A stretch of 37,239 bases of DNA from positions 1 to 37,239 of IMG/VR virus record IMGVR_UViG_3300029448_000142. One strand, 5' to 3'. Shown here in pieces: positions 1,556-30,298 of this stretch. Made by a program: the position numbers and the translations under genes. The stretch is from a virus. Its lineage: Duplodnaviria; Caudoviricetes. Under the pieces are notes generated by a model. That model was not told the origin of the DNA. It saw only the letters and a list, made by a program, of their open reading frames with translations, and made no database searches. Numbering within the stretch: position 1 is the first letter of the stretch; every line of letters starts with the position of its first letter.

Positions 1556-3323
1556 ACCAAGTGAGTCCCACGGCATAATCTGCTTCGATTGGGAGTTTGC
1601 TGGTGATTCCGAAATGAGTTCCTGCTTCTTCCGCCATTCCTCTAAGTATGTTACCGACATTGTGTGCTACCTCTTCAGTTCGACATGCAATCTGCAGTTC
1701 GTCATGTACCCATGCCAAGATGAGTGCATCGTTCTGTAGTTGTTGTCGTGTTATCTCCTTGTCGACCAGGGCTAACCACTTCTTACACAGAAGGGCTCCT
1801 GCTGACTGGAGAAGTTGTGAAAGGCATTTATGCTCTGACCTTACGAACAGCTTTCTGCCGTCCAAACCTTTGAGGTATCCGCGCTTATATGCTTGTGAAA
1901 GTTCATTCTTTAATGATTTAAAACTAGGAATATTCTTATCAAACTCTGACTTAAGTCTCTTACCGTCTTTGGCATTACCACCGACTAACTTACCAATGAG
2001 AGCGTCACCACCCCCATAAGTAGTTGCATAGATGAATGTCTTAGCTGCATCTCTTGTAGGTAAACCTGCTGCCTTCTGATTGAAGGTATGAATGTCTCCA
2101 TCCATGATTTGTTTGGCATACTCACCGCCATCATCAAGAAAGTAAGCAAGACACCTAAGTTCCAACTGAGACAAGTCACCACCACATAGGTGCCAACCTT
2201 TGGGCACAGTGAACAACTCTCTCATAGGTTTACCATAGGCTGCCTTAGCAGACACAGTCTGTGCTACGTTAGGATTACGATGGCTGGCTCTACCTGACAC
2301 AGTGCCACCAGAGACTATGGTATGTCTTAGCTTACCGTCTTTGTCTACCATCTTAAGCCATGCCTGGCTACCCTCAGCCAACTGAGCGATTCTCTTTTGC
2401 ACTAACATGAACTTCGCTAGTTTCTTAGCCTCAGGATATGGCAGCTGAGACAACACAGTCTCGTCTACCTTGGCCTCACCACTGGGGGTGAATGACTTAG
2501 GTTTCCAACCGTACTTTTGTACAAGACAATAGTGGATATGCTTACGACTGTTGGGATTAAACTCAACGACCTTGACCTTCGTAAAAGGCTCTCCTTTGAC
2601 GTATCCACGAGTTTTATTATTAGCCCTAGGGATGAACTCAGTGTGTACCTCCCAAGGCTCAAACAGCTCGTTAAGCTCCTTCTCCAGCTCTATCCGGGTC
2701 GTTGCTAACTCAGCGTACAAATGCTCCGCTGCTTTGATGTCAAAGGTCCAACCATTGTTACCAACTCTGTAACAAATCTCAGCTAACTCATGTTCTAACT
2801 CAAGTGACTCTTCAGAGAAACCTTTGGCCATCTTCATGAGCTTTTTGTATAACTCATAGGTAACTGTTACGTCTTGCTGACAGTACTCAAGCATCTCAGG
2901 GTTACACTCTTCCCAGCCTCCTTCATAGTCACCTTTCATGGTTCCCATTCGCAGACCCCAAGCCTTGAGTGCATGGCTGCCATACATTCTCTTCTTAAAG
3001 TCTTCAGGTAGACCGACAGATGTTGCATCGTCATTAATAAGGTCTGCAGCAACCAGTCGACTGATGACAAGTGTATCTGTGATTTTGCCAGTTGGTTTCC
3101 AGTGTGGATAAACTTTTTGTAATGCAGGTATGTCGAACCCAATGATGTTGTGACCTATGATTTCTGCAGCATCTCTTAGTAAGACAAGAGCCTCAGTGAT
3201 GCCTTCTGTTCCATGGTAAATCTTAGGTCCTTCATTGGTTGTTGTATCTTGGATTGCGATACAGTGGATGGTGTCTAACTCCTGAAGTAATCCATTGCTC
3301 TCCAGGTCAAACACTAGACTCAT
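1542..3323 (-). CDS. DNA polymerase, family A (T7 gp5-like) with 3'-5' exonuclease domain
   Basis: FDLESNG and GHNIIGFD exo motifs; motif A DLSQLELR, motif B RDAAKTFIYATTYG, motif C VHDELQ. Confidence 0.96.
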   Translation of the reverse strand: MSLVFDLESNGLLQELDTIHCIAIQDTTTNEGPKIYHGTEGITEALVLLRDAAEIIGHNIIGFDIPALQKVYPHWKPTGKITDTLVISRLVAADLINDDATSVGLPEDFKKRMYGSHALKAWGLRMGTMKGDYEGGWEECNPEMLEYCQQDVTVTYELYKKLMKMAKGFSEESLELEHELAEICYRVGNNGWTFDIKAAEHLYAELATTRIELEKELNELFEPWEVHTEFIPRANNKTRGYVKGEPFTKVKVVEFNPNSRKHIHYCLVQKYGWKPKSFTPSGEAKVDETVLSQLPYPEAKKLAKFMLVQKRIAQLAEGSQAWLKMVDKDGKLRHTIVSGGTVSGRASHRNPNVAQTVSAKAAYGKPMRELFTVPKGWHLCGGDLSQLELRCLAYFLDDGGEYAKQIMDGDIHTFNQKAAGLPTRDAAKTFIYATTYGGGDALIGKLVGGNAKDGKRLKSEFDKNIPSFKSLKNELSQAYKRGYLKGLDGRKLFVRSEHKCLSQLLQSAGALLCKKWLALVDKEITRQQLQNDALILAWVHDELQIACRTEEVAHNVGNILRGMAEEAGTHFGITSKLPIEADYAVGLTWCDTH

Positions 3324-3595: not shown

Positions 3596-4357
3596 TTAAA
3601 ATTTAAGAAGTAGCTCTTCTTGTTTCCACTCACAAGTAAAGCCACAATCTGTGGGCACATCGGTTTTAAAAGTGCCTCTATCAGGGTCTAGTACATCAAG
3701 GTAAACAGGTCCGTTTTTATCCTTGTTGACAGCGTGTCCAAGCTTGCGTTCTAACTTTGCCATCTTGTTAAATGCCTCTGGAAAGTCGACTCGTATTTTG
3801 TTCCAGTAGCCCATACCGCCTTTGACACAACCGACACAGTTGTTGTTGTTGTAACCTAATTGATACATCACAGGAATTTCAATTCCCAAATCTCCAACAA
3901 ACTCTAAACAATTTTTCTTGGTGTACCCTTTGTTGAACAGGATAAAATCGGCTTCCACTGTGTTGTTTGCATCAAGAAACCTATTTACTCTGTTCTCTTC
4001 TTCTACTGTGTAACCAAACACTTGAATGTCGTTGTGTTTCTCGTAAGCCTTTCGTACATTCTTTTTAAGAACCATCGTACAAGGTGCCCCAAGGGGCCCT
4101 TTGATAAACTTTCTCTCTTCGAATACTTTATAAATAGAGCAATCTCTCTCAGCATCACCTATAACCTTGATTGGGAGCCTACATTCCATTTCATACTCTT
4201 TAAGAAATCTAAGACTGTCCTCATGCTCTTCCTGTACTCGACAGTAAACAGCCTCAAAAGGATGGTCTTTGTATTTATCTCTGGCAAGATAAGTAGCAAA
4301 CGCACTAGCTGCCCCACAGCTAAACCATGAAACAACTCGCTGAGAGTCATAAGTCAT
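3596..4357 (-). CDS. PAPS-reductase-like / adenine nucleotide alpha-hydrolase family protein
   Basis: PP-loop-like SWFSCGAAS; PCTMVLKK; GYTVEEENR; NNNCVGCVKGG; C-terminal CGFTCE; AGGAG RBS. Confidence 0.7.
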   Translation of the reverse strand: MTYDSQRVVSWFSCGAASAFATYLARDKYKDHPFEAVYCRVQEEHEDSLRFLKEYEMECRLPIKVIGDAERDCSIYKVFEERKFIKGPLGAPCTMVLKKNVRKAYEKHNDIQVFGYTVEEENRVNRFLDANNTVEADFILFNKGYTKKNCLEFVGDLGIEIPVMYQLGYNNNNCVGCVKGGMGYWNKIRVDFPEAFNKMAKLERKLGHAVNKDKNGPVYLDVLDPDRGTFKTDVPTDCGFTCEWKQEELLLKF

Positions 4358-10123: not shown

Positions 10124-10304
10124 GCGACTCTCCTCTATTTTTTCCATATACTTCTGTACATAGCGCAACCCAATGCTCAGGATAATCTTTAACTAAGCCT
10201 TGTCTAAGTTTATCTATCGCCTCTCCGTCCTCATTTTTAACTTCTGCACAAGCCGCATCAATCATTAAGTTCCATAAGTCAATTTTCCATTCTCTAAAAT
10301 TCAT
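10116..10304 (-). CDS. small hypothetical protein (62 aa)
   Basis: GGAG RBS; ATGA overlap with integrase stop. Confidence 0.6.
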   Translation of the reverse strand: MNFREWKIDLWNLMIDAACAEVKNEDGEAIDKLRQGLVKDYPEHWVALCTEVYGKNRGESHE

Positions 10305-11155
10305 GCGACTCTCCCTTTAGGTGCTTCAAGTTTACTCATGATATTAGCCAAAGAATCTTTCTTGGCATGGACATACTTCTTTGTAGTTGCTATCGACCTA
10401 TGACCTAAGATAGTACCGACCACAATCGTGTCTACATTAAACTCCATAGCTAACCTAGTAGCACATGTGTGTCTAAGCACATGAAACACAAAGTCATCAT
10501 CAAAAGGAGCGATAGACATTCTTGCAGCATCCCAAGTGTCGTAGAACTTACGGTGCGAATAGACACCACTAGGACAATAACCTAAGTTTTCTAAGGCAAC
10601 CTTGGCTTCTTGGTTTAGAGGTACAGTCCGCTGCTCACCATTCTTTGTCTGCGTCAGCTCAACAAAGCCACCACAGCGGCTCACAGTGCCTACAGTCTTC
10701 TTGCTAGACGCATTGTTGATACTTAGGATTTCTCCTAGGCGCATACCAGTGTTGACACCTAAGGTAACAAAGTCAGCCATCCATGGGTGGTCAGAGTCCA
10801 GGAAGAACTCTATGAGGTCGTTAACCTCTTGGTCAGAGAAGAACCTAGGTCTCCCTGGCTCTACAGGTTTCCATCGTACCTTAGGTACTCTGTCGACCAA
10901 CTCAAAGTCAGCTGCTAGGTTAAACAAGGCACTGAATGCAGCCAGGTACCTGTTGACTGTGTTGTTCTTAAGACCTTCAGCAGACAAGTGGTCTATGAAA
11001 GCATAGAGGTCAGCAGCTTTATATTCGCCAATCTCTTTGTACTTGTTGTATCTAAAGTCGCTGAGTCTTTTGACCATGAACCCACAGTCTCTTAGGTACT
11101 TACCGCTCCAGAGTCTAGCTCCGTGTTTATCAAAAAAAGTTTCTATAGTTGTCAT
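10301..11155 (-). CDS. int: tyrosine recombinase / phage integrase
   Basis: TGMRLGEIL, TKNG, HVLRHT, LGHRSIATTKKY catalytic pattern; GGAG before ATG 11155 (track 11230). Confidence 0.95.
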   Translation of the reverse strand: MTTIETFFDKHGARLWSGKYLRDCGFMVKRLSDFRYNKYKEIGEYKAADLYAFIDHLSAEGLKNNTVNRYLAAFSALFNLAADFELVDRVPKVRWKPVEPGRPRFFSDQEVNDLIEFFLDSDHPWMADFVTLGVNTGMRLGEILSINNASSKKTVGTVSRCGGFVELTQTKNGEQRTVPLNQEAKVALENLGYCPSGVYSHRKFYDTWDAARMSIAPFDDDFVFHVLRHTCATRLAMEFNVDTIVVGTILGHRSIATTKKYVHAKKDSLANIMSKLEAPKGRVA

Positions 11156-11201
11156 AATGTTTTCTCCAAGTAGTGACAGCATCAGGGCTGTCTGAAGACA
11201 T

Positions 11202-11223
11202 AAAAAAAGACCCGGAGGTCTTT
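11202..11223 (-). terminator. short hairpin + T run upstream of integrase
   Basis: Minus strand AAAGACC-TCCG-GGTCTTT-TTTT. Confidence 0.5.
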
Positions 11224-11298
11224 GTGTCAATCGATTAATTTAGGTTAAATCTATTGCTATTCGTATGTAGGAAACTATAGAGCTGCTAGTTGCGTTAG

Positions 11299-11355
11299 TA
11301 GAGCAGTCGACTCATAATCGATTGGTCGTAGGTTCAAGTCCTACTGGGCCCACCA
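11299..11355 (+). other. attP core candidate: 3' three-quarters of a tRNA with CAT anticodon (Ile2/Met type); 5' part degenerate
   Basis: TAGAGCA-GTCGA-CTCATAA-TCGAT-TGGTC-GTAGG-TTCAAGT-CCTAC-TGGGCCC-ACCA; anticodon and T arms intact, no proper 5' acceptor/D strand; adjacent to integrase. Confidence 0.85.
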
Positions 11356-16517: not shown

Positions 16518-17120
16518 TTAAAGTGCGTAGGCTGGTCTTATACTTTGTAGAGACCCGGCTAACTCTTGGTCATCTGCCTGTACTTGTATCTCATCGAGGA
16601 ATGCCTGGTATTTACCTTCGAATACTGGAGACCTCTCGTCTAAGTAGTAGTCAGATGCATAAGTGAGAGCTGCATAGATAATCAAGTCAGATGCAATAGT
16701 TGCCAAAACATTCTCATCAGTATCAGAATTCATAGCTACAAATTGAGCATAGTAATTAAGAGTAAGGCTGCCGCTGCTTGGGTATGGGCTAATTAAAAAT
16801 TTAGAGCCTTCTCTAGTAAAATAGTAAGGACTTCCTTGCGTGTCAGCTTGCTTTAGGTTCTGCATTTCAGCCATAGGAATTCTTACCAAGGTCCTATTGT
16901 CATAATAGAGGTCAATAGCCTCTAAAAAATCAGAAGGCAAAACAACACTAGTAGTAGAAGAAGAAATACTATATGTGTGCTGAGTTTCCATAGAAGGTAT
17001 TCGCAGAGTCCTTTGGATTCTAGTAATGCCTTGGTCGATGAAGGTATCAGCAAGGGTATCAGTGATATCGCTGCGGTTTAATACAGCTTTAAATTGGGTT
17101 CTTAGACTACCCTTGTTCAT
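16518..17120 (-). CDS. head-tail adaptor / tail tubular protein A-like
   Basis: LNRSD....TFI, LPSDFLE, GSPYYFT, PYPS, DLIIYAAL; downstream of capsid. Confidence 0.75.
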   Translation of the reverse strand: MNKGSLRTQFKAVLNRSDITDTLADTFIDQGITRIQRTLRIPSMETQHTYSISSSTTSVVLPSDFLEAIDLYYDNRTLVRIPMAEMQNLKQADTQGSPYYFTREGSKFLISPYPSSGSLTLNYYAQFVAMNSDTDENVLATIASDLIIYAALTYASDYYLDERSPVFEGKYQAFLDEIQVQADDQELAGSLQSIRPAYAL

Positions 17121-17556: not shown

Positions 17557-18969
17557 TTAAGACAGACCAGTAATCATTCCAGAATCGGAATGGTTCACAT
17601 GCTTGTTTGAAATCTCACCCACTACGAAATGAGTATCTGCATCGCCATTTTTACTAAGCAAAGTACGAGTAAACGGACGCAGTACACACTGCTTAAACAT
17701 GGATGGGTCAACCAAGAATGCGTGAGTTGACAATTGATTTCTGTTAATCACGGTTCGTAACTCTCCGAATGGAGTAAGTATTACGTCAATAACATTAATT
17801 AATGTCTTTGCATCGATTTCACGGTTACGACCAGTGGCTGTAGCGAACCCGGCCACAATAGTGGCATCAGCTGGCTTAATCATAAGCACAGTTGGCTCAG
17901 AACCATTGGTATAACAGGTCTGATGTAGCTCAATCAACTTAGCCTCTGTAAGCGCGTCAGTTGAACTGGAACCTGCATCTACAGTAGTAGAAATCTGTTG
18001 TGAGACAGAAGCCATCTTACGAGCAGCACTTGCACTACCTGTAACAGCAGCTTGGTCAACACCAATCATTGCCTTTTCAACATCAAGCTTTACAGCTTTT
18101 AGTGTCTTGGCGAGGGCATCATTCGCCAATCTTCGCTCAAGGTCGTTACTCTTGAACCGTCTTTATCCTTAAGACTGCTTATGCTTTCGACATAAGATGA
18201 GACTATATCATCACCTGTTGTATAAACAGGGTCATGCGCTTCCACCCACTTGGGTGTACTCCCTTCCGGGATAGTCGTTGCACCTTCCCTAGTAACTAGG
18301 GCTTGGCTCAGGATTACCATATCTTTCGACTTAGGCTTCCCCTGAATTCACATGATTTAGGCAGCGCATACCATTTTTAACGCTGTTTCTTTTGCTCGAC
18401 CATGGGTTTTAACCGCATCAACTGTACCAGCAACTTTAAATGCTTCACCGATGATTTGAGTCGTGTTAGAACGAACAGTAGGCTGACCAATAGCTGTAGT
18501 TGAAGCATCAGCTCCTTCTACGAGCGCATTGACTCCAGCTGCCCTAATAGAATCTTCAAGAAATTCAAATGTACGAGCAGATACTTTTTCAGTCTTTATC
18601 ATTGACTGGAATGGTGTGGATGTCACTTATGTTCAAGTAGGCTCGTTATTTCCTACTCCGTCCTCTTCAAGACTGCAGCATATTTCTATACTGGTCAGAC
18701 TATATCTTCACCCTCTATAAAAGAGGGGCTAGGTGCTTCCACTCACTTGAGTGTACTCCCTTTCGGGATAGTCGTTGAACCTTCCTCTTGCGAGGCTCGG
18801 CTGCTGATTGTCGGTAGCCACCACAGCTACTACGATTTTCCAGCAATTCTCCTAGTTACAACTATAGATTACTCTACAGCGGCCCAATCTGTTTAGGCGA
18901 AATGTTTGCAATCGTTTGCGAAACGTCTTCACTCATACCAATAGTTTGATAAGTTTGTAGTAAACTCAT
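17557..18969 (-). CDS. major capsid protein (SU10/DUF5309-type), spliced: join(18969..18895, 18623..18380, 18119..17557), 293 aa
   Basis: Joined exons read MSLLQTYQTIGMSEDVSQTIANISP|TSTPFQSMI...NTTQI...GRAKETAY|ALAKTLKAVKLDVE...LRPF...; 882 nt in frame; follows scaffold gene. Confidence 0.9.
18120..18379 (-). ncRNA. group I intron 2 (IA2-like, 260 nt, no ORF) in capsid gene
   Basis: P GAATTCAGGGGAA, Q AATCCTGAGC, R GTGCAACGACTA, S TGATATAGTCT; P1 CAGCGU/GCGCUG with U.G at the splice site; P10 GGUAU/AUGCC; terminal G 18120. Confidence 0.93.
18624..18894 (-). ncRNA. group I intron 1 (IA2-like, 271 nt, no ORF) in capsid gene
   Basis: P GAATTGCTGGAAA, Q AATCAGCAGCC, R GTTCAACGACTA, S AAGATATAGTCT; P1 GCCU/GGGC with U.G; terminal G 18624. 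Confidence 0.93.
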
Positions 18970-19007: not shown

Positions 19008-20057
19008 TCATTCCCAATTAGACATAATGACATCTGCAATGTTATCCAAGTCACTACTATTACTTCGTAGGCGGTCCACATTCTTCTGCTGACGTTCACG
19101 CTTAATGTCAGTTTTAGACGGTGGTGCCTTCTTAGTTCGTAGGACTTTTTTCGCTGCTTTGGCTTTTTTCACGGTGGCTACCTTAGTAGTTTGGTCAAAC
19201 ATGCGAGCCTTATTCAGTAACATAATGACATTAGGATCGACATATTGATTGACGGCTTCTTCAGGTAAACCGTTAGTAATGGCGTACTGACGGATGTCGT
19301 TATACATCGAATTGTTCCAGTCAGGGATTTCTCTCTGCAGAACTTTGACACATTCCTTCGCTTGTTCTTGCATAGCTTGGGACTGTTGATTTTTAACGTA
19401 TCCGTAGAAACCATCGGCCTCTTCAGTTAGGAACTTGAGGTCATCTTCGGCTTGTTTAGCTTCTGCCCTAAGTTGGGTAAAATCCTCAGCACTCATGTTT
19501 TTAGACGCAACTAGCATGTCTACTTCAGAGTAAGGTTTGAACCGTTCTTGGGCTCGACTAATCATTGCCTGTAATGACGCATCAGCTTTTTGCAGTTGTT
19601 CATCAGCCATCTTGCGCTGTGATGCTGTTTCTTGAGACTTTCTAGTTAAAGACGCTTCTTGACCATACAATCTTTTGAGGTCTTTGATAGATGCCTGCTT
19701 AGACTCACCATCAACACTAATTTCTACCAGGGTGTCATCGTCAAACGCAACGACTTCAGCTTCTTCGCTGTCATCATCTTGTTCTTCTGCTTCTTCCTGG
19801 TCATCTTCAGTGTCTTCAGACTCGTCCTCTTCTTCAGGGTCCTCATCGTCCTCTTCGTACTCTAGGTCTTCAGTTTCATCTTCAGTTTCGACAGATTCTT
19901 CTACTCTAGTCTCACTTGTAGTTTCATCTGTTGCCTCTTGTTCTTCTTTGGATACCGTTTCCGGGTCCTCCCAATTTCCAAGTATGGCTTCTGCAGCATC
20001 GTCTAATGTGAGTGCTGCTTCAGAAATGGAATTGCTATTGACGTTACCGTTAGGCAT
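19008..20057 (-). CDS. capsid scaffolding protein
   Basis: Very acidic N-half, ISVDGE....SIKDLKR.Y....LTRKSQE, coiled coil; between portal and capsid. Confidence 0.85.
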   Translation of the reverse strand: MPNGNVNSNSISEAALTLDDAAEAILGNWEDPETVSKEEQEATDETTSETRVEESVETEDETEDLEYEEDDEDPEEEDESEDTEDDQEEAEEQDDDSEEAEVVAFDDDTLVEISVDGESKQASIKDLKRLYGQEASLTRKSQETASQRKMADEQLQKADASLQAMISRAQERFKPYSEVDMLVASKNMSAEDFTQLRAEAKQAEDDLKFLTEEADGFYGYVKNQQSQAMQEQAKECVKVLQREIPDWNNSMYNDIRQYAITNGLPEEAVNQYVDPNVIMLLNKARMFDQTTKVATVKKAKAAKKVLRTKKAPPSKTDIKRERQQKNVDRLRSNSSDLDNIADVIMSNWE

Positions 20058-20382: not shown

Positions 20383-22416
20383 TTAACCATTAGGTGATGC
20401 AATGGCAGTAATCTCATCAGCTTGTTGAGCTAGTAGTAGCTCCGCTGCAGCGATTAACTTCTTGTGCTTCAGCTGCTCTTCCTTGAGGTCAAGGTTGTCA
20501 GACTGTATAGCGTGTTGATTCTCAGCTTTTGCTCTTTCAAGCTCTAGCTTCATTTGATTAATCTGTGCTTCTACCTGAGCCTTAGTTTCTGCCATGGCCG
20601 TCTGCCGCTCTTGTATCTCAAGCTGCTTCTGCGCCATTTGCATCTGCATTTCTTCTGCAGGGTCTGGTTGCTCAGGTGGTAGATTCTCAGGATTAGTAAG
20701 GTAGGCACTGACTTCTTTAATACCTGTCAGCTCCATAATCTTTGATGCTAAAGCATACTGGTTAGGTGCTTGGTACATCTTTGATAGGTTAGGGTCATTA
20801 GTCATCATTGCATGAAGTGCTAGGTACTTCTGAGACTCTTTCTCTTGCTCTCCATAGCCAAGGTTTAACTCGATGACAACATCGCGCTTTTCTTTCCAGT
20901 CGCGTGGATTACAAGGTACATACTTACCAGACAACTCGACAATGCGTTCCTGCTGCTCATTCTCACAGACCAGCTGGTAAACTTCTTGAAACAATGGCTT
21001 AACAAACTGAGTAGCAAAGTTACGAGCAATTATCTTTTGTCTCTGCTGAGACATGGTCGCAAGTTGCTCAACCATTGCAGCTGAGTTTTGCTTGCTAATA
21101 GCATCTTTGTTAAGGCCCTGAGACATCTTAGACACGCCTGTAGTGTCTTCTTTGTCTTCGTCTAGCATCTGTATTGTGTTAAATATGAATGGGTTTAGAG
21201 GAGCTTGCATCATAGGTGCAATGGCATCTGCACGGCTTACGTTAACAATACCGCCTACCCGGTTATCAATCAGCTCACGCGGATTAGTAAGACCACCTTT
21301 GACTACTGTGTAACGTGGGTTATTAGTAATCATGGCGTGGTCTAAGATAGACCTAGTCAATATAGTCCTAGCATTTTGAGTAGCAACTACTTTGTCTGCA
21401 TAGTTGTTACCATAGAAGCTATGAGGTACTGGTAGAGGTACAAAAGTAACGAATGGTTTTCTAGCGGACTTCTCTTTTAGTAGTAATACGTTACCTGCTT
21501 TGATGACACGGTATAACTCAGCGACACCTGAGCCTTCAACGTCTAACATAATGTAGGCTTCATAGACCATGACGTTACGGACTTGGTCCTGGTAACCACC
21601 AGTCTTTGTGCCACGGAAGTTTCCTACATTGTCAAACCTAGCAAGGACTTCTGGGTCTGTATCCATGTCGACATCGTGGTGTTCACCAATCTTTTCTATA
21701 AGCTTTTCTGAGTAACCTTCGAGACGTAGGTCAGACAGTGTCTTCTTAGTTCTGTGGGCACAGAAGTTAACGTCTTCTAGGCTTTTTGCTTGTGTTTCAA
21801 TAAGAAACTCTTCTGGAGCTACGTTCTCAATGATTACTTGGCTAGTGTCAGACTCAATACTTATGCTGCCAGAGATTAACCCAAGCTCGTCAGTGGTGCT
21901 TTCTGTTAACTCTACGCCTTCTTGTGCAAGCAGTAGGTTTAACTCACTATCAGTAATATCAGTGAAATCTTCATAGTCATAATCAACAGACTCTTCCCAG
22001 AATACTTTGACAACTCCTGCTCTAGCAATGAGGCCATCATGGATAACTGTAGACATAGTCGTGTAGAGGTCATTCTGACGGTGTACAACATAATCAGTGT
22101 ACTCAGTGCATACTTTGGCTTTCTCTACGTCATCTTCATTTTGTGCAGCAAAGCGCACTGTCTTGTTTCCACTGGAGAAGGTTTCAAGTAAAGCTGCCTT
22201 AAGGCTCTCTACTGCATCGTAGACATCTAAAGAAACATACTTAGAGTTACCCTCATGTACTGGTCTGGGCAAAGTTCCATTGTAATAGTCGATTATCTTT
22301 GCTCTTTCTGTAGATAGCTCTGAGTCTGCATATCCGACAGATAAGCCTACCTGCTCGTCTACCAAAGCAACGATGTTGCTATCTGACAGTTTTTTCTCTT
22401 TTAGCTTCTTTGCCAT
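20383..22416 (-). CDS. portal protein
   Basis: 677 aa after terminase; DYYNG, SKYVSLDV.DAVE, DGLIARAGVVKVFW, ENVAPEEFLI, Gln-rich C-terminal coil. Confidence 0.9.
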   Translation of the reverse strand: MAKKLKEKKLSDSNIVALVDEQVGLSVGYADSELSTERAKIIDYYNGTLPRPVHEGNSKYVSLDVYDAVESLKAALLETFSSGNKTVRFAAQNEDDVEKAKVCTEYTDYVVHRQNDLYTTMSTVIHDGLIARAGVVKVFWEESVDYDYEDFTDITDSELNLLLAQEGVELTESTTDELGLISGSISIESDTSQVIIENVAPEEFLIETQAKSLEDVNFCAHRTKKTLSDLRLEGYSEKLIEKIGEHHDVDMDTDPEVLARFDNVGNFRGTKTGGYQDQVRNVMVYEAYIMLDVEGSGVAELYRVIKAGNVLLLKEKSARKPFVTFVPLPVPHSFYGNNYADKVVATQNARTILTRSILDHAMITNNPRYTVVKGGLTNPRELIDNRVGGIVNVSRADAIAPMMQAPLNPFIFNTIQMLDEDKEDTTGVSKMSQGLNKDAISKQNSAAMVEQLATMSQQRQKIIARNFATQFVKPLFQEVYQLVCENEQQERIVELSGKYVPCNPRDWKEKRDVVIELNLGYGEQEKESQKYLALHAMMTNDPNLSKMYQAPNQYALASKIMELTGIKEVSAYLTNPENLPPEQPDPAEEMQMQMAQKQLEIQERQTAMAETKAQVEAQINQMKLELERAKAENQHAIQSDNLDLKEEQLKHKKLIAAAELLLAQQADEITAIASPNG

Positions 22417-24661: not shown

Positions 24662-27600
24662 CTAGGCTGACAACATCCCAGGTCCTGGAGTCAAGATGCC
24701 TGGGTTCTCTTCTTCTTCTCCACCTATCATTCCTGCCATCAAAATAGCTACGATAGTTGCTAATGGACTAGCAAAGAATTTAACTGGAATGTTACTTTCG
24801 TTGAAATGGTCTTGGATGAACTTATAAGTTGTGGGTAAAAGCTTTTTAGAAGTTTTAGGGTCTATGATAGACAACAGCACTGGATCTTCTGAAAATTCAG
24901 CATCATTTTTAATGTAACCTTCATACTTAAGAAATTCTTCGTCTACTCTTCTATTTGCTTCTTCATCTGTTGCACTAGGATTTTGTTCAAAATAGAGTTC
25001 TTTTGCTAATTTACGGTTTAGCCTTATAGGAAATTCACCTAATTCTGGTGCAGACCCAAACCCAACAAAAGTACCGTTTTGTAAAGCATCGATTTCATCC
25101 TTAATAGATTTTGCTTGCGAATACGTCAAATTACTTACGATATCATTTGCATAGTTCATCCTAATTTTTGCATCAGGAAGCTTTTCTGCAAAAGTAGAAT
25201 CAGGTAAATAATTGCGTTGGGCTGCCGCGACAACTTGAGCTATGCTTTGACGTAAACTACCATCAAAATATTGTTTTTGCTTTTTATCTGCTAAATTATG
25301 CGCAGGTGGTCTTTTTATTGTGTAACTTGGCTCGTTATCCATAGGTCTAGACTCTAGTCCATGAGACATTTCATGAGCTAAAGTTAATAAAGTTTTTCCA
25401 TAATTGCTACGATTTCTTATAGCAACTCTACCGCTTACACCTTCGTTATTAGGCTGAAAAAAACCTTCAGTGCCAATAGGTATATTGTTTTGTGAAAAGT
25501 CTCGTAACTCTTTGTGGGTTTGAAATATACCAATTGAAATGTCTAGCATGTCTGCAAGCTGCTGAAAGTCTTCCATACTAGACAAGCCTTTCTCAAACTT
25601 AGTGCCAGGCTTACCAATGACCATCTGCACAGCACCCTTGGCATCCTCAAGTTTATCCTTGATTTGACCAACGGTAGGTGTAGTGAAGTCGAATGGTATC
25701 TGTGGAGACTCAGGCTGCAGCAACGCTGGCTGCGTAGATAGGTCTATTTCTGCTGTGATTTCTTCTGGTTGTAGAGTTCTACTAGGCTGTTCATCTGCGT
25801 TTCTAACTGTTCTTTGTTCAGGGACAACTGTGCTTTGTCGAACTTCTCCTGGTCCAAGTTTTGGGCGCGGCTGAACTCGGTCGATTGCTGCGTTGAGGTC
25901 TTGTTCATTGAATCCTTCCTTAATTAATAGTTCTTTTAGGCTCGTTGCAAAGTCTTTTCTAACATTCTTAAGTGGAACGCCTAACTTCTTATATAAATCT
26001 TGTTCAGGATACCATATTAGGGCTTGGAATGCAGCAGGTTCAATGCTAAGTCCAGTCTGCTGATTGAACTTTGTAACGGCTGTTTGTACCAGGGAACGTA
26101 AGTGATTACGCTCTGTTCCATTAGTTGGTGAATCAATAGTATTCTTTAGCGAACCTTTAATTGTAAAAGCTGCTTTAGTAGCCTCGCTTTTGACTTTTCT
26201 CTTTGGGTCACCCTTTTTCAAATCATAGAGTTTTCTATTTTTTTTGTAATCAGCTTCATGTAGTTTAATTAATTCAAATGCTTTATCAATGAGCTGTTCT
26301 TTAGATATACGCTTGCGGCCTAATGCTTTTTTAAGGCGGTTCAACTGGTTCTGGAACTTCTTTTCATCGAACTCCATCAGTTTACCTTTAAGACGGCCTA
26401 CGGTTCTCATAAACCACATATCCATTGTAACTGGACTAAAATCACCTCTTAGATTAGTGTAGAAACCATTTCCAACTTTAGGACCAAATACTGCAGAGCC
26501 GTAAACAACCGTATCTACGTTCTCGCCTCCAACTTTACCTTCGTCTCCTAAGTAATTTTGTAAAACTGGGTTTAACTCTTTCACTGTAAATTTTGTCTGT
26601 AAGAAATCAGCTAGAGCTTCCATCGAGCCAAGCTTATTAAGCAACATATTTGCTTTTTTGAAGTTTAACTCCATAACCGCCTGGCTTTTACCCTGCCCAA
26701 TGACCTCAAACTGTCCCTTATCTCTAAAATATTCGTAGGCTTTTTCTGCAATTTTAAGGTTAGTCGGTACGTCCATATTCTGAGACATGATAGAAAGAGC
26801 GACTAGCATTGGAGTCTTTGCGTTTACGTCAGTAGCTATTTCTGGATACTTCAAAGACATCATACTCAGCATTTTTTCAATGGTTAGGTCATACCAGTCC
26901 ATTGCGCTGCCTTCGTCCTGACTATTCATTTCGTAGATAGCTTCAGCTACTAAATCATTAGCAATTAACTCACGGTCTGCAGGGTCAGCAATATCTCTTA
27001 CAGTGCCGCCAATCTTATTTAAGGCTCTGGCTTCTAGGAATTTTGCAACTTCGGTCTTACCCTTCATTTTTGGAAATGTTTCGCTGCCCTCATTTATTGT
27101 ATTAACGTTAGGACTCGTGTCAAAAGCTAATGCAGGACCGTCTGTAAACGATGGCTCCATAGAGGCATTAAGTTCAAGAGAATTTGTTTGTAAAGGGTCA
27201 AACTGAGCATTAACTGAACGTATGTCTGAAGGCTCAAATATTGCTAAATGAGTAGATGGATCGTCTGCAAGACCTACTGAATCATTTAGGTTAAGAAGTT
27301 TAACCCCCTTTTTACCTGTAAGTTTAGCCTTACGCATTAAATCATTAATTTCTAAAGACACCCCTGAATCATCAAATGATTTACCTTCCATATCTTTTAC
27401 TAATAAATCTGCATCCTTTGGTGCATAGATTGGAATAATGTTTTGTCCGTTATTTCTATCACCACTATTAAATTTAAGTTCTAGTTTTTCTGCAGCATCA
27501 AGAAGTTTGTCATATGCATCATGTCCTATAACTGAAATTGGAATGCCATTACTGTCTTTTTTGAAACCAGTAGAATCGATACCAGATTGAGTAAGTAAAC

Positions 27601-30298
27601 CATCTAGAGTTAACATGGTCTCTTGCTCAATAAGCTCATCGCCATAAACAGATGCTGCATCTTCTGCTTCTTTTACTAAGTTGTGTACTGGTGCATATGT
27701 TCCAGAATAATGAGCATAACTCATAGCTGTTCTTGGACTATCTGAGAACCAAAATCCGTTTTCTGCAGAGGTAGACCCTGTAGATAATCCTCGCTTGCCT
27801 TTTTCAAAAGATAAAATATTAGAAGCAGTACCGTGATAATAAACAGTAGAAGTATCGTAACCCTGCTCTTCAGCTCTAGCTTTTCTATCGGCTACATTAT
27901 TCCTATTGAACGACATCTCTCTAGACTCATCGATTTCCATCGCGTCATCTTGAGCTGCATCGCGTTCTTCTTTAGCTCCTTGCTGTGCCATAACTCTCTG
28001 TAAGTATTGACCAAGGTATTTCTCTACAGTAGGACCAGGAACGTCTTGTTCTTCCAAACGTCTTGCCATCGATTGAAGACGAGAGACTGGGTTGAGACCT
28101 AGGTCTAACTGCATCTCTTCAAGGGTGTTTAATAGCATTGCTTTTTGCTGTACAGGAATAGTACTGTCTGCATTTACTGCTTCAGTAATACGAGCTGCTT
28201 CTGCACGATTGTTCTCTATGCCACGCTGATAGTTCTGGTCTTTTTGTGAAAGCTGCTGTTGAGCTTGTCCTTGAGCTGCTGACTGAGCATTACGAGGTCT
28301 AACCATCAAGTTTTGAAGTTGAGGGTATTGGTCAACAAGAGCATTGATGTCACGGTATAAACCAAAATCTACTTGACCTCCAGTAGCTACACTAGTTTCG
28401 TAAGCTTCGATAGCTCGTGTGGTAGCAGGAAGTGTATTTGGGTTTGCTTTCAGTATTCGGATTACTTGGGCCAGACCAGATCGATCTAATCCGGTTGCAT
28501 CTCGCATAATGTCTTCTGGACTGCCTTGCTGCGGAGGGGCACTTTGCTGAACTCTTCTTAGGTTAGCTTGACGCTCTTCTTCAGTATATTGTTCTTGGCG
28601 TAGACGAGCTTCTTCTGCTTGCGCTAGAGCTTGTTCTGCTACTTGTGCTTTTGCAGCTTCTTCCGCTGCCTCTTCGTTTTTAAGAGAGCGACCAGTTGCT
28701 GCTGGCTGTCCAGGCTGGTTTACATTTTGATCTATGTAACGAGCTACGTTGCTTCTTCTGCCTGTAGCTTTATCAATGAGACGCCCAGCTCCAAAAGTAC
28801 CTATTTGGGCTGCGGACAAGGCTGGATTAGACAATCCTAAAGCGATAGAGGCCAGTGGACGAGCAAACTGCTGCATTGGGCCGCCAGTATTAGAATAATT
28901 ATCTAAAGGTCCTATTGGGTTTAATGCATCAGTGTACTGTGTCACTCCTCCAGTCAATCCGCCTGAGTAAAGATTCGTTAAAGCATTCATTTCGTGCATT
29001 AGGGAGATAGCTTCTTGGCCTTCCTGAGTATCACCAGCAATTTTCTCAAATGCTGCAAAGTCAGCTGGCTCTACAACGTTCTTCACTTTGTTTTTAGATT
29101 TTATTGCTGCTAAAGCTGCATCAGACTTTTCAATCACTTGGTCAAAAGTGTCTGACTTTTTAATCTTAAGTCTTTCTTTCAACATGCCAATCAAAGTTTT
29201 TAATCTTTGGTTCATGTCACTGTGAGAATTGTCAATTAGACCTTTAGCGCCCTTGTTGTTATCTGGGTCGACATCTTGCACATCATAATTTTCAGAATTT
29301 TCGTCTTCATCAGCTTGGTCAATTTTTAATGCTAGGCGTTTAGACAAATCTGCTGCAGCTTGTTCTGTTCTAGACGTTGGAAATTCTTCTTGGTAACCTT
29401 TCATTAAATCTTCAGCAGAGGATTGACCTCTAGTTCGACTTCCTACTGCTTTTCTAGCGCCAGCAATTGTCGTATCAACAGCACCAGCTGAACCTGCTCC
29501 TATTATCCCTTCACCAATAGCTTGCCTAGGACTAACTTCTAAACCTTTTTTTGTAAGTAGCGTAGAGCCAGTCTGTTCACCGACACTCTGTAACGCTTCG
29601 GTGCCTCCTTCAGCAAGCATTCTTCTCATGATTCCAGACATTCCTGGAGCAATTGCATTAAGCATTCCTATGCCAGCTGCTGAAGTAGCTGCTACATAGA
29701 AATCTTCTTTGTTAGGCTCTTTGCGACCATTGTTCTTGGCTCTTTCCATTGCAATTGGACCAAGTTGCTGCATTCCTTCAAATACCATTGGTCCACCAAA
29801 TGCTCCAATAACACCGCCTGTGGCTGCTCCTGCAGCTGTCCCAGCTCCGGGTATCACTGATCCGGCTAATCCACCAACTCCTGCTCCTACTGCAGCACCG
29901 CCTGCCCTACTTCCAAGTGACCCAATAAATTGACCTGCTTGTTCAGCAACTGCCTTTGGAGCATAAGTAAAGTCATATATAGGCCGACCTTCGTTCATAA
30001 ATTGAGAAGCAGCACTTTGTCCTGGGCGTCTATCAACTAGGCCTCCCAATGAATCAGCTAAATCGTCTTTTCCAAACACTCTTGCAGTTGTAGCTGTATT
30101 TTCAGCTGCTTGGTCAATTCCTCGCATAAAAGCATCACCAAAGCCTTCAAACGCTCCATCTTTTGCATTAGCTTCTTCGGCTGCGTATGCCTTTTGATAC
30201 ATACCGTCTAGAATTTTTGCTTTTTTGTAATCTTTTGCTTCAAAAGCTTTTCGTGCCTTTCGGTATATTTCGTCTGAGCTGTATTCCAGTGTAGCCAT
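24662..30298 (-). CDS. large internal virion/ejection protein, polyvalent (ART-like, glycosylase-like, HExxH peptidase domains)
   Basis: 1878 aa; Gly/Ala hydrophobic N-terminal segments; YHGT...GFWFS...A.SYA; GPKV..FYTNL...VTMDMWF.R; LAHEMSHG. Confidence 0.75.
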   Translation of the reverse strand: MATLEYSSDEIYRKARKAFEAKDYKKAKILDGMYQKAYAAEEANAKDGAFEGFGDAFMRGIDQAAENTATTARVFGKDDLADSLGGLVDRRPGQSAASQFMNEGRPIYDFTYAPKAVAEQAGQFIGSLGSRAGGAAVGAGVGGLAGSVIPGAGTAAGAATGGVIGAFGGPMVFEGMQQLGPIAMERAKNNGRKEPNKEDFYVAATSAAGIGMLNAIAPGMSGIMRRMLAEGGTEALQSVGEQTGSTLLTKKGLEVSPRQAIGEGIIGAGSAGAVDTTIAGARKAVGSRTRGQSSAEDLMKGYQEEFPTSRTEQAAADLSKRLALKIDQADEDENSENYDVQDVDPDNNKGAKGLIDNSHSDMNQRLKTLIGMLKERLKIKKSDTFDQVIEKSDAALAAIKSKNKVKNVVEPADFAAFEKIAGDTQEGQEAISLMHEMNALTNLYSGGLTGGVTQYTDALNPIGPLDNYSNTGGPMQQFARPLASIALGLSNPALSAAQIGTFGAGRLIDKATGRRSNVARYIDQNVNQPGQPAATGRSLKNEEAAEEAAKAQVAEQALAQAEEARLRQEQYTEEERQANLRRVQQSAPPQQGSPEDIMRDATGLDRSGLAQVIRILKANPNTLPATTRAIEAYETSVATGGQVDFGLYRDINALVDQYPQLQNLMVRPRNAQSAAQGQAQQQLSQKDQNYQRGIENNRAEAARITEAVNADSTIPVQQKAMLLNTLEEMQLDLGLNPVSRLQSMARRLEEQDVPGPTVEKYLGQYLQRVMAQQGAKEERDAAQDDAMEIDESREMSFNRNNVADRKARAEEQGYDTSTVYYHGTASNILSFEKGKRGLSTGSTSAENGFWFSDSPRTAMSYAHYSGTYAPVHNLVKEAEDAASVYGDELIEQETMLTLDGLLTQSGIDSTGFKKDSNGIPISVIGHDAYDKLLDAAEKLELKFNSGDRNNGQNIIPIYAPKDADLLVKDMEGKSFDDSGVSLEINDLMRKAKLTGKKGVKLLNLNDSVGLADDPSTHLAIFEPSDIRSVNAQFDPLQTNSLELNASMEPSFTDGPALAFDTSPNVNTINEGSETFPKMKGKTEVAKFLEARALNKIGGTVRDIADPADRELIANDLVAEAIYEMNSQDEGSAMDWYDLTIEKMLSMMSLKYPEIATDVNAKTPMLVALSIMSQNMDVPTNLKIAEKAYEYFRDKGQFEVIGQGKSQAVMELNFKKANMLLNKLGSMEALADFLQTKFTVKELNPVLQNYLGDEGKVGGENVDTVVYGSAVFGPKVGNGFYTNLRGDFSPVTMDMWFMRTVGRLKGKLMEFDEKKFQNQLNRLKKALGRKRISKEQLIDKAFELIKLHEADYKKNRKLYDLKKGDPKRKVKSEATKAAFTIKGSLKNTIDSPTNGTERNHLRSLVQTAVTKFNQQTGLSIEPAAFQALIWYPEQDLYKKLGVPLKNVRKDFATSLKELLIKEGFNEQDLNAAIDRVQPRPKLGPGEVRQSTVVPEQRTVRNADEQPSRTLQPEEITAEIDLSTQPALLQPESPQIPFDFTTPTVGQIKDKLEDAKGAVQMVIGKPGTKFEKGLSSMEDFQQLADMLDISIGIFQTHKELRDFSQNNIPIGTEGFFQPNNEGVSGRVAIRNRSNYGKTLLTLAHEMSHGLESRPMDNEPSYTIKRPPAHNLADKKQKQYFDGSLRQSIAQVVAAAQRNYLPDSTFAEKLPDAKIRMNYANDIVSNLTYSQAKSIKDEIDALQNGTFVGFGSAPELGEFPIRLNRKLAKELYFEQNPSATDEEANRRVDEEFLKYEGYIKNDAEFSEDPVLLSIIDPKTSKKLLPTTYKFIQDHFNESNIPVKFFASPLATIVAILMAGMIGGEEEENPGILTPGPGMLSA

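Follow-up and report, generated by a model that had tools for sequence, protein, structure and literature searches.

The major capsid gene of the virus contig studied here is interrupted by two inserts which, judged by their sequence, are both group I introns predicted to self-splice. They are likely optional and dispensable selfish elements that are passed between related phages as DNA together with a short stretch of flanking exon. The contig, a record of 37,239 nt that is about 93% complete, was analysed as a whole and is referred to as the window. The interrupted gene is predicted to encode an SU10-type major capsid protein (PF17236) and consists of the following parts:

18895..18969, minus strand: capsid exon 1, 75 nt or 25 codons, matching residues 1–25 of relatives at 64–96%
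18624..18894, minus strand: intron 1, predicted ORF-less group I intron of family A, 271 nt, after coding nt 75; RF00028 80.2 bits, covariation
18380..18623, minus strand: capsid exon 2, 244 nt, PF17236 positions 25–106 (E 5.9e-18)
18120..18379, minus strand: intron 2, predicted ORF-less group I intron of family B, 260 nt, after coding nt 319, inside a Tyr codon; RF00028 80.6 bits, covariation
17557..18119, minus strand: capsid exon 3 and stop codon, 563 nt, PF17236 positions 110–291 (E 1.9e-39)

Each insert is preceded by a U and has G as its last letter. These ends, as well as the coordinates of all exons and inserts, agree with an earlier sequence-only reading of this DNA, which had also claimed a single stop-free frame of 293 aa for the joined exons. 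Joining by script indeed gave 882 nt coding for 293 aa, with the terminal stop as the sole stop codon and the junction peptides NISP/TSTPF and KETA-Y-ALAK. The unspliced RNA would yield 31 aa, the length previously proposed, and RNA lacking only intron 1 would yield 113 aa, so that the capsid protein would depend on the removal of both introns. The SU10-type assignment, likewise part of that reading, is borne out by the profile PF17236 (SU10_MCP), which matches exons 2 and 3 above cut-off and in collinear order; exon 1 (25 aa) on its own gave no profile match. Open frames are also obtained from other U/G cut pairs, 10 around intron 1 and about 40 around intron 2, and the frame alone therefore does not fix the junctions. 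They are fixed because the joined protein aligns gap-free over residues 1–293 with intronless relatives (identity up to 93%), an alignment that the earlier reading had suggested as a check, and because the same junctions are the best or near-best join in relatives.

A scan of the whole window against Rfam returned three matches, namely two to RF00028 and a weak one to tRNA. The RF00028 matches at 18178–18421 (80.6 bits, E 3.9e-19) and 18676–18904 (80.2 bits, E 5.4e-19) exceed the gathering cut-off of 50 bits, in line with the group I identity proposed before and with the covariance-model search proposed along with it. Compared to 200 shuffles the folds of the inserts reach z-scores of -3.22 and -2.24. 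The helices that both introns can form are P1, with U.G as its splice-site pair, P3–P9, P7.1, P7.2, P9.1 and P9.2; intron 1 can additionally form P2. The splice-site and guanosine-site helices are positioned as follows:

18882..18898, minus strand: intron 1 P1, exon 18898–18895 with guide 18885–18882, U.G at the splice site
18698..18773, minus strand: intron 1 P7, 18773–18769 with 18702–18698; encloses P7.1, P7.2, the P3 3' strand and P8
18362..18385, minus strand: intron 2 P1 and P10 guide arm, exon 18385–18380 with 18367–18362; P10 18372–18368 with exon 3 18119–18115
18201..18276, minus strand: intron 2 P7, 18276–18272 with 18205–18201; encloses P7.1, P7.2, the P3 3' strand and P8

We aligned 18 introns of family A and 11 of family B, chosen by hand from 39 distinct ones. 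Pairing is retained in 98.5% of cells in family A and in 96.8% in family B. Changes on both sides of a pair were found for 33 of 74 pairs in family A (19.3 in shuffles) and for 25 of 73 pairs in family B (9.5 in shuffles), none of 500 shuffles being as high in either case, although these figures are tilted towards the fold, since the window's sequence itself served as the template for the structures and the shuffling takes no account of relatedness. The U.G pair of P1 at the 5' splice site is present in all 18 family A and all 11 family B introns. In family A, P1 shows one both-side change, in the L038 row; in family B, P1 is paired in 11 of 11 rows with two both-side changes, and four of the five P10 pairs have changed on both sides. 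The core helices P3, P4, P6, P7 and P8 are present, and the G-C pair of P7 that forms the guanosine site is invariant in both alignments. P8 aligns less well in family B (78% paired). In the window, P3, P4, P7 and the P1 helix of each intron are intact; they are also conserved, and the hairpins P7.1 and P7.2 covary in both families. Two such hairpins between P7 and P3 are the criterion for subgroup IA. As features for classing introns they are also named in the available part of PMC3984707. Both introns thus probably belong to subgroup IA, more narrowly IA2.

The exon offers independent support for the predicted fold, since the letters needed for P1 fall on synonymous codon positions and track the presence of the intron. 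At site 75 they are found in 15 of 17 carriers versus 2 of 81 non-carriers, the remaining two carriers having a compensating change in the guide; at site 319 they are found in 15 of 15 carriers versus 14 of 83 non-carriers. The two introns are about 69% alike overall and nearly identical along some 50 nt that cover P7, P7.1 and P7.2 (around 18787–18738 and 18290–18241, minus strand), a stretch that could permit exchange between them.

Group I splicing begins with a guanosine attack behind the U in P1's U.G pair, and the exons are then joined at the terminal G. By this chemistry both introns are predicted to cut themselves out of the capsid mRNA. They would do so independently of each other, because their guides differ and the omission of exon 2 (244 nt) would shift the frame. 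For the latter reason exon skipping was also rejected as a source of a useful product.

A word search listed 24 sequencing runs, none of which contains half of the region's words. The runs in which parts of the region occur all have low word shares and carry the labels seawater, marine or viral metagenome. Four of the 24 runs, all marine, were compared with the window and contain contigs of relatives only, at about 89–98% identity. Intron pieces are present in all four. Joined forms in runs X8, X9 and X10 were rejected as proof of splicing, as their junction letters differ and they look like intronless alleles. One contig of X8 (record 13), 300 nt in length, matches the window at 18628–18810 and contains window 18653–18628 twice, at record positions 1–26 and again at 271–296. 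The period of this repeat, 270 nt, equals the size of a family-A intron. This is a hint at a circular excised intron of a relative, coming from one contig of depth 5 whose middle 87 letters were uncompared.

We determined the distribution of introns in 98 distinct full-length capsid alleles, including the window, taken from two sets of relative loci and from genome matches. No intron is found in 71 of the 98, a count that is biased upward because one of the locus sets comprises the best 80 of 473 loci by whole-protein match and so favours intronless alleles. One to three introns, in nine combinations, are present in the remaining 27. In the other set of relatives at least one intron is present in 28 of 80 loci. 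Alleles that are near-identical (0–1% apart) differ in intron content, carriers are scattered across the exon tree, and the two-intron allele of the window recurs in several contigs. Insertion sites were counted if they had both U/G ends and a P1 match; motif-found loci included, there are about nine, after coding nt 75, 152, 165, 175, 319, 338, 486, about 662 and 669. The 72 extracted inserts measure 245–305 nt each; several automatically placed junctions were misplaced. Introns group by site in the intron tree, with 6 label changes versus 19.8 when labels are shuffled. One intron family occupies sites 75, 175 and 669, where nearly all carriers have an identical set of four exon letters just before the intron; a second family occupies site 319. 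Three or more introns were seen in the SU10-type capsid alleles L301, L325, L335, L077 and L078. The apparently long intron of L342 turned out to be two compact introns. In L195, an SU10-type capsid locus with distant motifs, the two ORFs scanned gave capsid matches only.

Pairs of alleles that are discordant in intron content were examined for traces of transfer. In 7 of 13 such pairs, which were picked by hand, sequence differences are clustered within 25 nt of the site (p 2e-11 to 2.3e-5); clustering is weak in two pairs (p about 0.02) and absent in four. L074 and L015 differ at seven positions, all of them between -3 and +15 of the site. The tracts reach past the bases needed for P1 and P10, which marks them as recombination tracts. 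Among seven sister pairs, five are gain-like (L074, L024, L044, L063 and L057), with the non-carrier matching the background, L002 is loss-like, and the L125 group points neither way. The tracts of L074, L024, L044 and L063 match carriers that are 14–35% diverged elsewhere. Close intronless pairs also show a tight cluster of differences somewhere in the gene in 4 of 13 cases, which suggests that short-tract recombination is ordinary in the capsid gene. Co-conversion of flanking exon is therefore seen beside the introns without being specific to homing.

No nuclease ORF was found inside 51 extracted introns, whose longest stop-free sense stretch is 76 codons, and no intron-linked nuclease was found among 747 clustered ORFs in the flanks (mostly 3 kb) of the capsid loci. 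One flanking ORF with an HNH-like motif lies in the intronless locus L142 and has no PHROG match. The scanned ORFs of the window include no recognisable endonuclease gene, T7-type endonuclease I aside. With a genome completeness of about 93%, and with relatives read no further than the surroundings of the gene, a trans-acting nuclease could have been missed.

Related introns were then sought by motif in other genes and phages. The family-A motif occurs at 118 viral loci, and 52 distinct matches passed the intron filter: 47 in capsid genes (24 SU10-type, 20 phrog_267 and 3 phrog_3437), two in polymerase or reductase genes and three without a gene family. The family-B motif occurs at 56 viral loci with 39 distinct matches, 32 of them in SU10-type capsid genes. 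Both motifs were derived from capsid introns and the sets overlap the first set of relatives, so that the capsid bias of these counts is partly built in. An earlier family-B motif had given 17 loci, three in a capsid gene and most of them not intron-like. The 39 metagenome loci comprise 19 capsid loci with no long insert and five with long core inserts and no capsid match. ORF-bearing versions of the introns at capsid sites were found nowhere among the viral and metagenome motif-matched loci. In a scan of 57 proteins from picked loci, HNH or endonuclease VII ORFs were detected in five introns of the non-capsid polymerase, RNA polymerase or reductase genes (L160, L179, L180, L190 and L221). From these sequences the two intron families appear to be mostly ORF-less and mostly capsid-borne.

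Within these sets, phrog_267 capsid genes carry ORF-less introns resembling family A, often two per gene (L162, L166, L173, L178, L187, and further L194, L199, L212, L225 and others), as do the phrog_3437 capsid loci L167 and L231. Motif matches of L221, L232, L236 and L292 lie beside genes for T7-type RNA polymerase, RNA polymerase beta, tape measure protein and DNA polymerase; in L221 the T7-type RNA polymerase gene is accompanied by an endonuclease VII ORF.

The account that we regard as the probable one is that of self-splicing, near-neutral introns which homologous recombination carries from allele to allele along with short exon tracts, and which rarely jump to new sites that match the guide. 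For the transfer between alleles, co-infecting or resident phages would recombine homologously within short matching exon segments, and a dedicated nuclease would probably be absent. New sites would be colonised rarely, with survival only where the exon already matches the guide. Whatever the route, an intron survives only where its guide matches, so that the exon letters held in common agree with reverse splicing without proving it; the available text of PMC3984707 describes reverse splicing as being without direct experimental evidence. Homing in trans, in which a free-standing or intron-borne nuclease encoded elsewhere cuts intronless alleles and repair copies the intron, would likewise leave co-converted exon, its hallmark, and accessible sections of PMC2988022 and PMC3984707 describe both exon co-conversion and trans homing of ORF-less introns. 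A predominance of gain-like changes (five of seven sister pairs) would be easier to reconcile with homing driven by a nuclease than with neutral recombination, HNH or endonuclease VII ORFs do occur in related introns of the polymerase, RNA polymerase and ribonucleotide reductase genes, and differences between intronless pairs number 45 around site 75 and 42 around site 319, with 29 expected. We nevertheless consider it unlikely, as no such nuclease gene was recognised in the flanks or the window, several nucleases would be required to serve about nine sites, and the six tested sites fall at the 31st–69th percentile of amino-acid conservation, away from the most conserved codons. A bolder form of nuclease-free spread, a group I ribozyme lineage specialised on phage major capsid genes whose RNA guide finds the sites and which spreads between alleles up to 35% diverged without a homing endonuclease, is conceivable but doubtful; if true, it would provide a natural test bed for the unproven reverse-splicing route of intron transposition.

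The remaining alternatives concern function and splicing itself. The sequence-only reading had suggested that the introns gate or time assembly through GTP or Mg2+. The dependence of the capsid protein on the removal of both introns and the concentration of the intron families in capsid genes speak for introns kept as a gate or timer of capsid synthesis, responding to GTP, Mg2+ or the state of translation, and in its available part PMC11878797 discusses the idea of a "molecular on-switch" and a dependence of T4 intron splicing on growth state. We found no evidence supporting such a gate: many alleles are intronless, alleles 0–1% apart differ in introns, an allele may have no intron or three and more, and the insertion sites vary from lineage to lineage, which makes this reading very unlikely, though a subtle effect on fitness or timing could escape a comparison of sequences. 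Little capsid protein would be made if the group I introns no longer spliced unaided, either dead or in need of a host factor. In the tested phage set of PMC11878797, as far as its available text goes, four of eight intron-carrying genes were spliced only in infected cells; against the intact and conserved P3, P4, P7 and both P1 helices and the recurrence of the two-intron allele in several contigs, however, we give the loss of unaided splicing scant credence. The window is a single metagenomic record, which could raise the suspicion of an assembly artefact or chance pattern. Many other contigs, however, contain these introns at identical junctions, which refutes the suspicion, and with Rfam E-values of about 1e-19 it carries virtually no weight.

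Other phages are already known to have group I introns in the capsid gene. The available part of PMC7886860 (Yutin et al. 2021) reports them for crAss-like phages of the Delta and Zeta groups, whose capsid gene is in one instance divided into five fragments. The novelty claimed by the sequence-only reading was hence overstated, also in view of the structural-gene introns of Twort orf142 covered in the accessible portion of PMC11878797. As in the crAss-like phages described in those sections of PMC7886860, a major capsid gene is split by several group I introns and annotation is confounded; the crAss-like introns were found there via intron-encoded protein domains and in gut phages. In contrast, the introns analysed here are ORF-less (245–305 nt) and interrupt an SU10-type capsid gene, relatives occur in marine samples, and the phage has a genome of about 37 kb with a T7-like RNA polymerase and an integrase.

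The orf142 gene of Staphylococcus phage Twort contains three ORF-less introns of subgroup IA2. It is a tail tube gene with introns and exon skipping according to the available part of PMC11878797. Our case resembles it in having several small introns in one structural gene, and between intron 2 and Twort records there is a match of 70% covering 69% of the intron; it differs in that the gene encodes the capsid protein and that skipping of exon 2 would shift the frame. The T4 introns in td, nrdB and nrdD share with ours the co-conversion of exon beside a mobile intron and an early in-frame stop within the intron. Unlike them, the host gene here is a structural one and no intron-encoded or neighbouring nuclease was found. 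In jug phages, group I introns that average about 206 nt fragment essential phage genes, as the short introns do here, and 37 of 76 have splicing support from RNA reads; the genes named in the accessible sections of that report, in contrast to the capsid gene, are terL, nrdD and polymerase, and free-standing nucleases are many (PMC12880540).

Another case is phage C72C1 (GenBank OQ984150.1, L081 about 2970–3210), whose major head gene carries a family-B intron at the homologous position, matching intron 2 at 82% over 86% of the latter. The head gene is annotated as two "major head protein" pieces plus three spurious ORFs on the opposite strand, and the intron is unannotated, an instance of the mis-annotation by gene callers that had been anticipated from the window's sequence. 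C72C1 differs from the window in having one intron, and its GenBank record is without a host. We found no paper on phage C72C1, and none on introns in SU10-type capsid genes in the literature covered, which excludes most subscription papers and Table S1 of PMC11878797; from the available text, that table lists split phage genes and may name further capsid cases.

The capsid gene is a standard phage marker, and in 28 of 80 relatives it lies in pieces that gene callers split, as in C72C1. Group I introns in phages are said to favour DNA-metabolism genes in the parts of PMC11878797 and PMC12350094 available, and the capsid-borne, mostly ORF-less families contrast with this bias. While the window's own two-intron gene is a modest example among known capsid-gene introns, the near-identical pairs of alleles with and without intron make the spread of a nuclease-less intron testable and raise the question of how nuclease-free introns spread.

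The capsid gene belongs to an SU10-type head module made up of portal, scaffold, capsid and adaptor genes. Its other members are:

20383..22416, minus strand: SU10-type portal gene (PF23899, E 3e-179)
19008..20057, minus strand: head scaffolding protein gene, directly upstream of the capsid gene (phrog_3927, phrog_9013)
16518..17120, minus strand: SU10-type adaptor gene, downstream of the capsid gene (PF24175)

The window also encodes a T7-like RNA polymerase, DNA polymerase A, a primase-helicase, endonuclease I and an integrase, so that a T7-like RNA polymerase, replication genes and an integrase are combined with an SU10-type head module. A phage collection held no cultured close relative, the nearest cultured phage reaching about 33% over exon 3, and matches in genomes were confined to four MAG contigs with mixed labels. 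The weak tRNA-like match lies at 11280–11352 on the plus strand (Rfam 32.7 bits; no tRNA by ARAGORN). It adjoins the integrase gene at 10301–11230 and may be an attachment site through which the phage integrates into a tRNA gene of its host. A gene for a protein of 1878 aa at 24662–30298 (minus strand) shows a weak, sub-threshold match to ART-PolyVal (ADP-ribosyltransferase) over residues 818–1030 and adjoins a gene with a faint match to DNA-ejection proteins. A PAPS-reductase-like gene (phrog_424) at 3596–4357 on the minus strand is located between the primase-helicase on one side and the DNA polymerase on the other.
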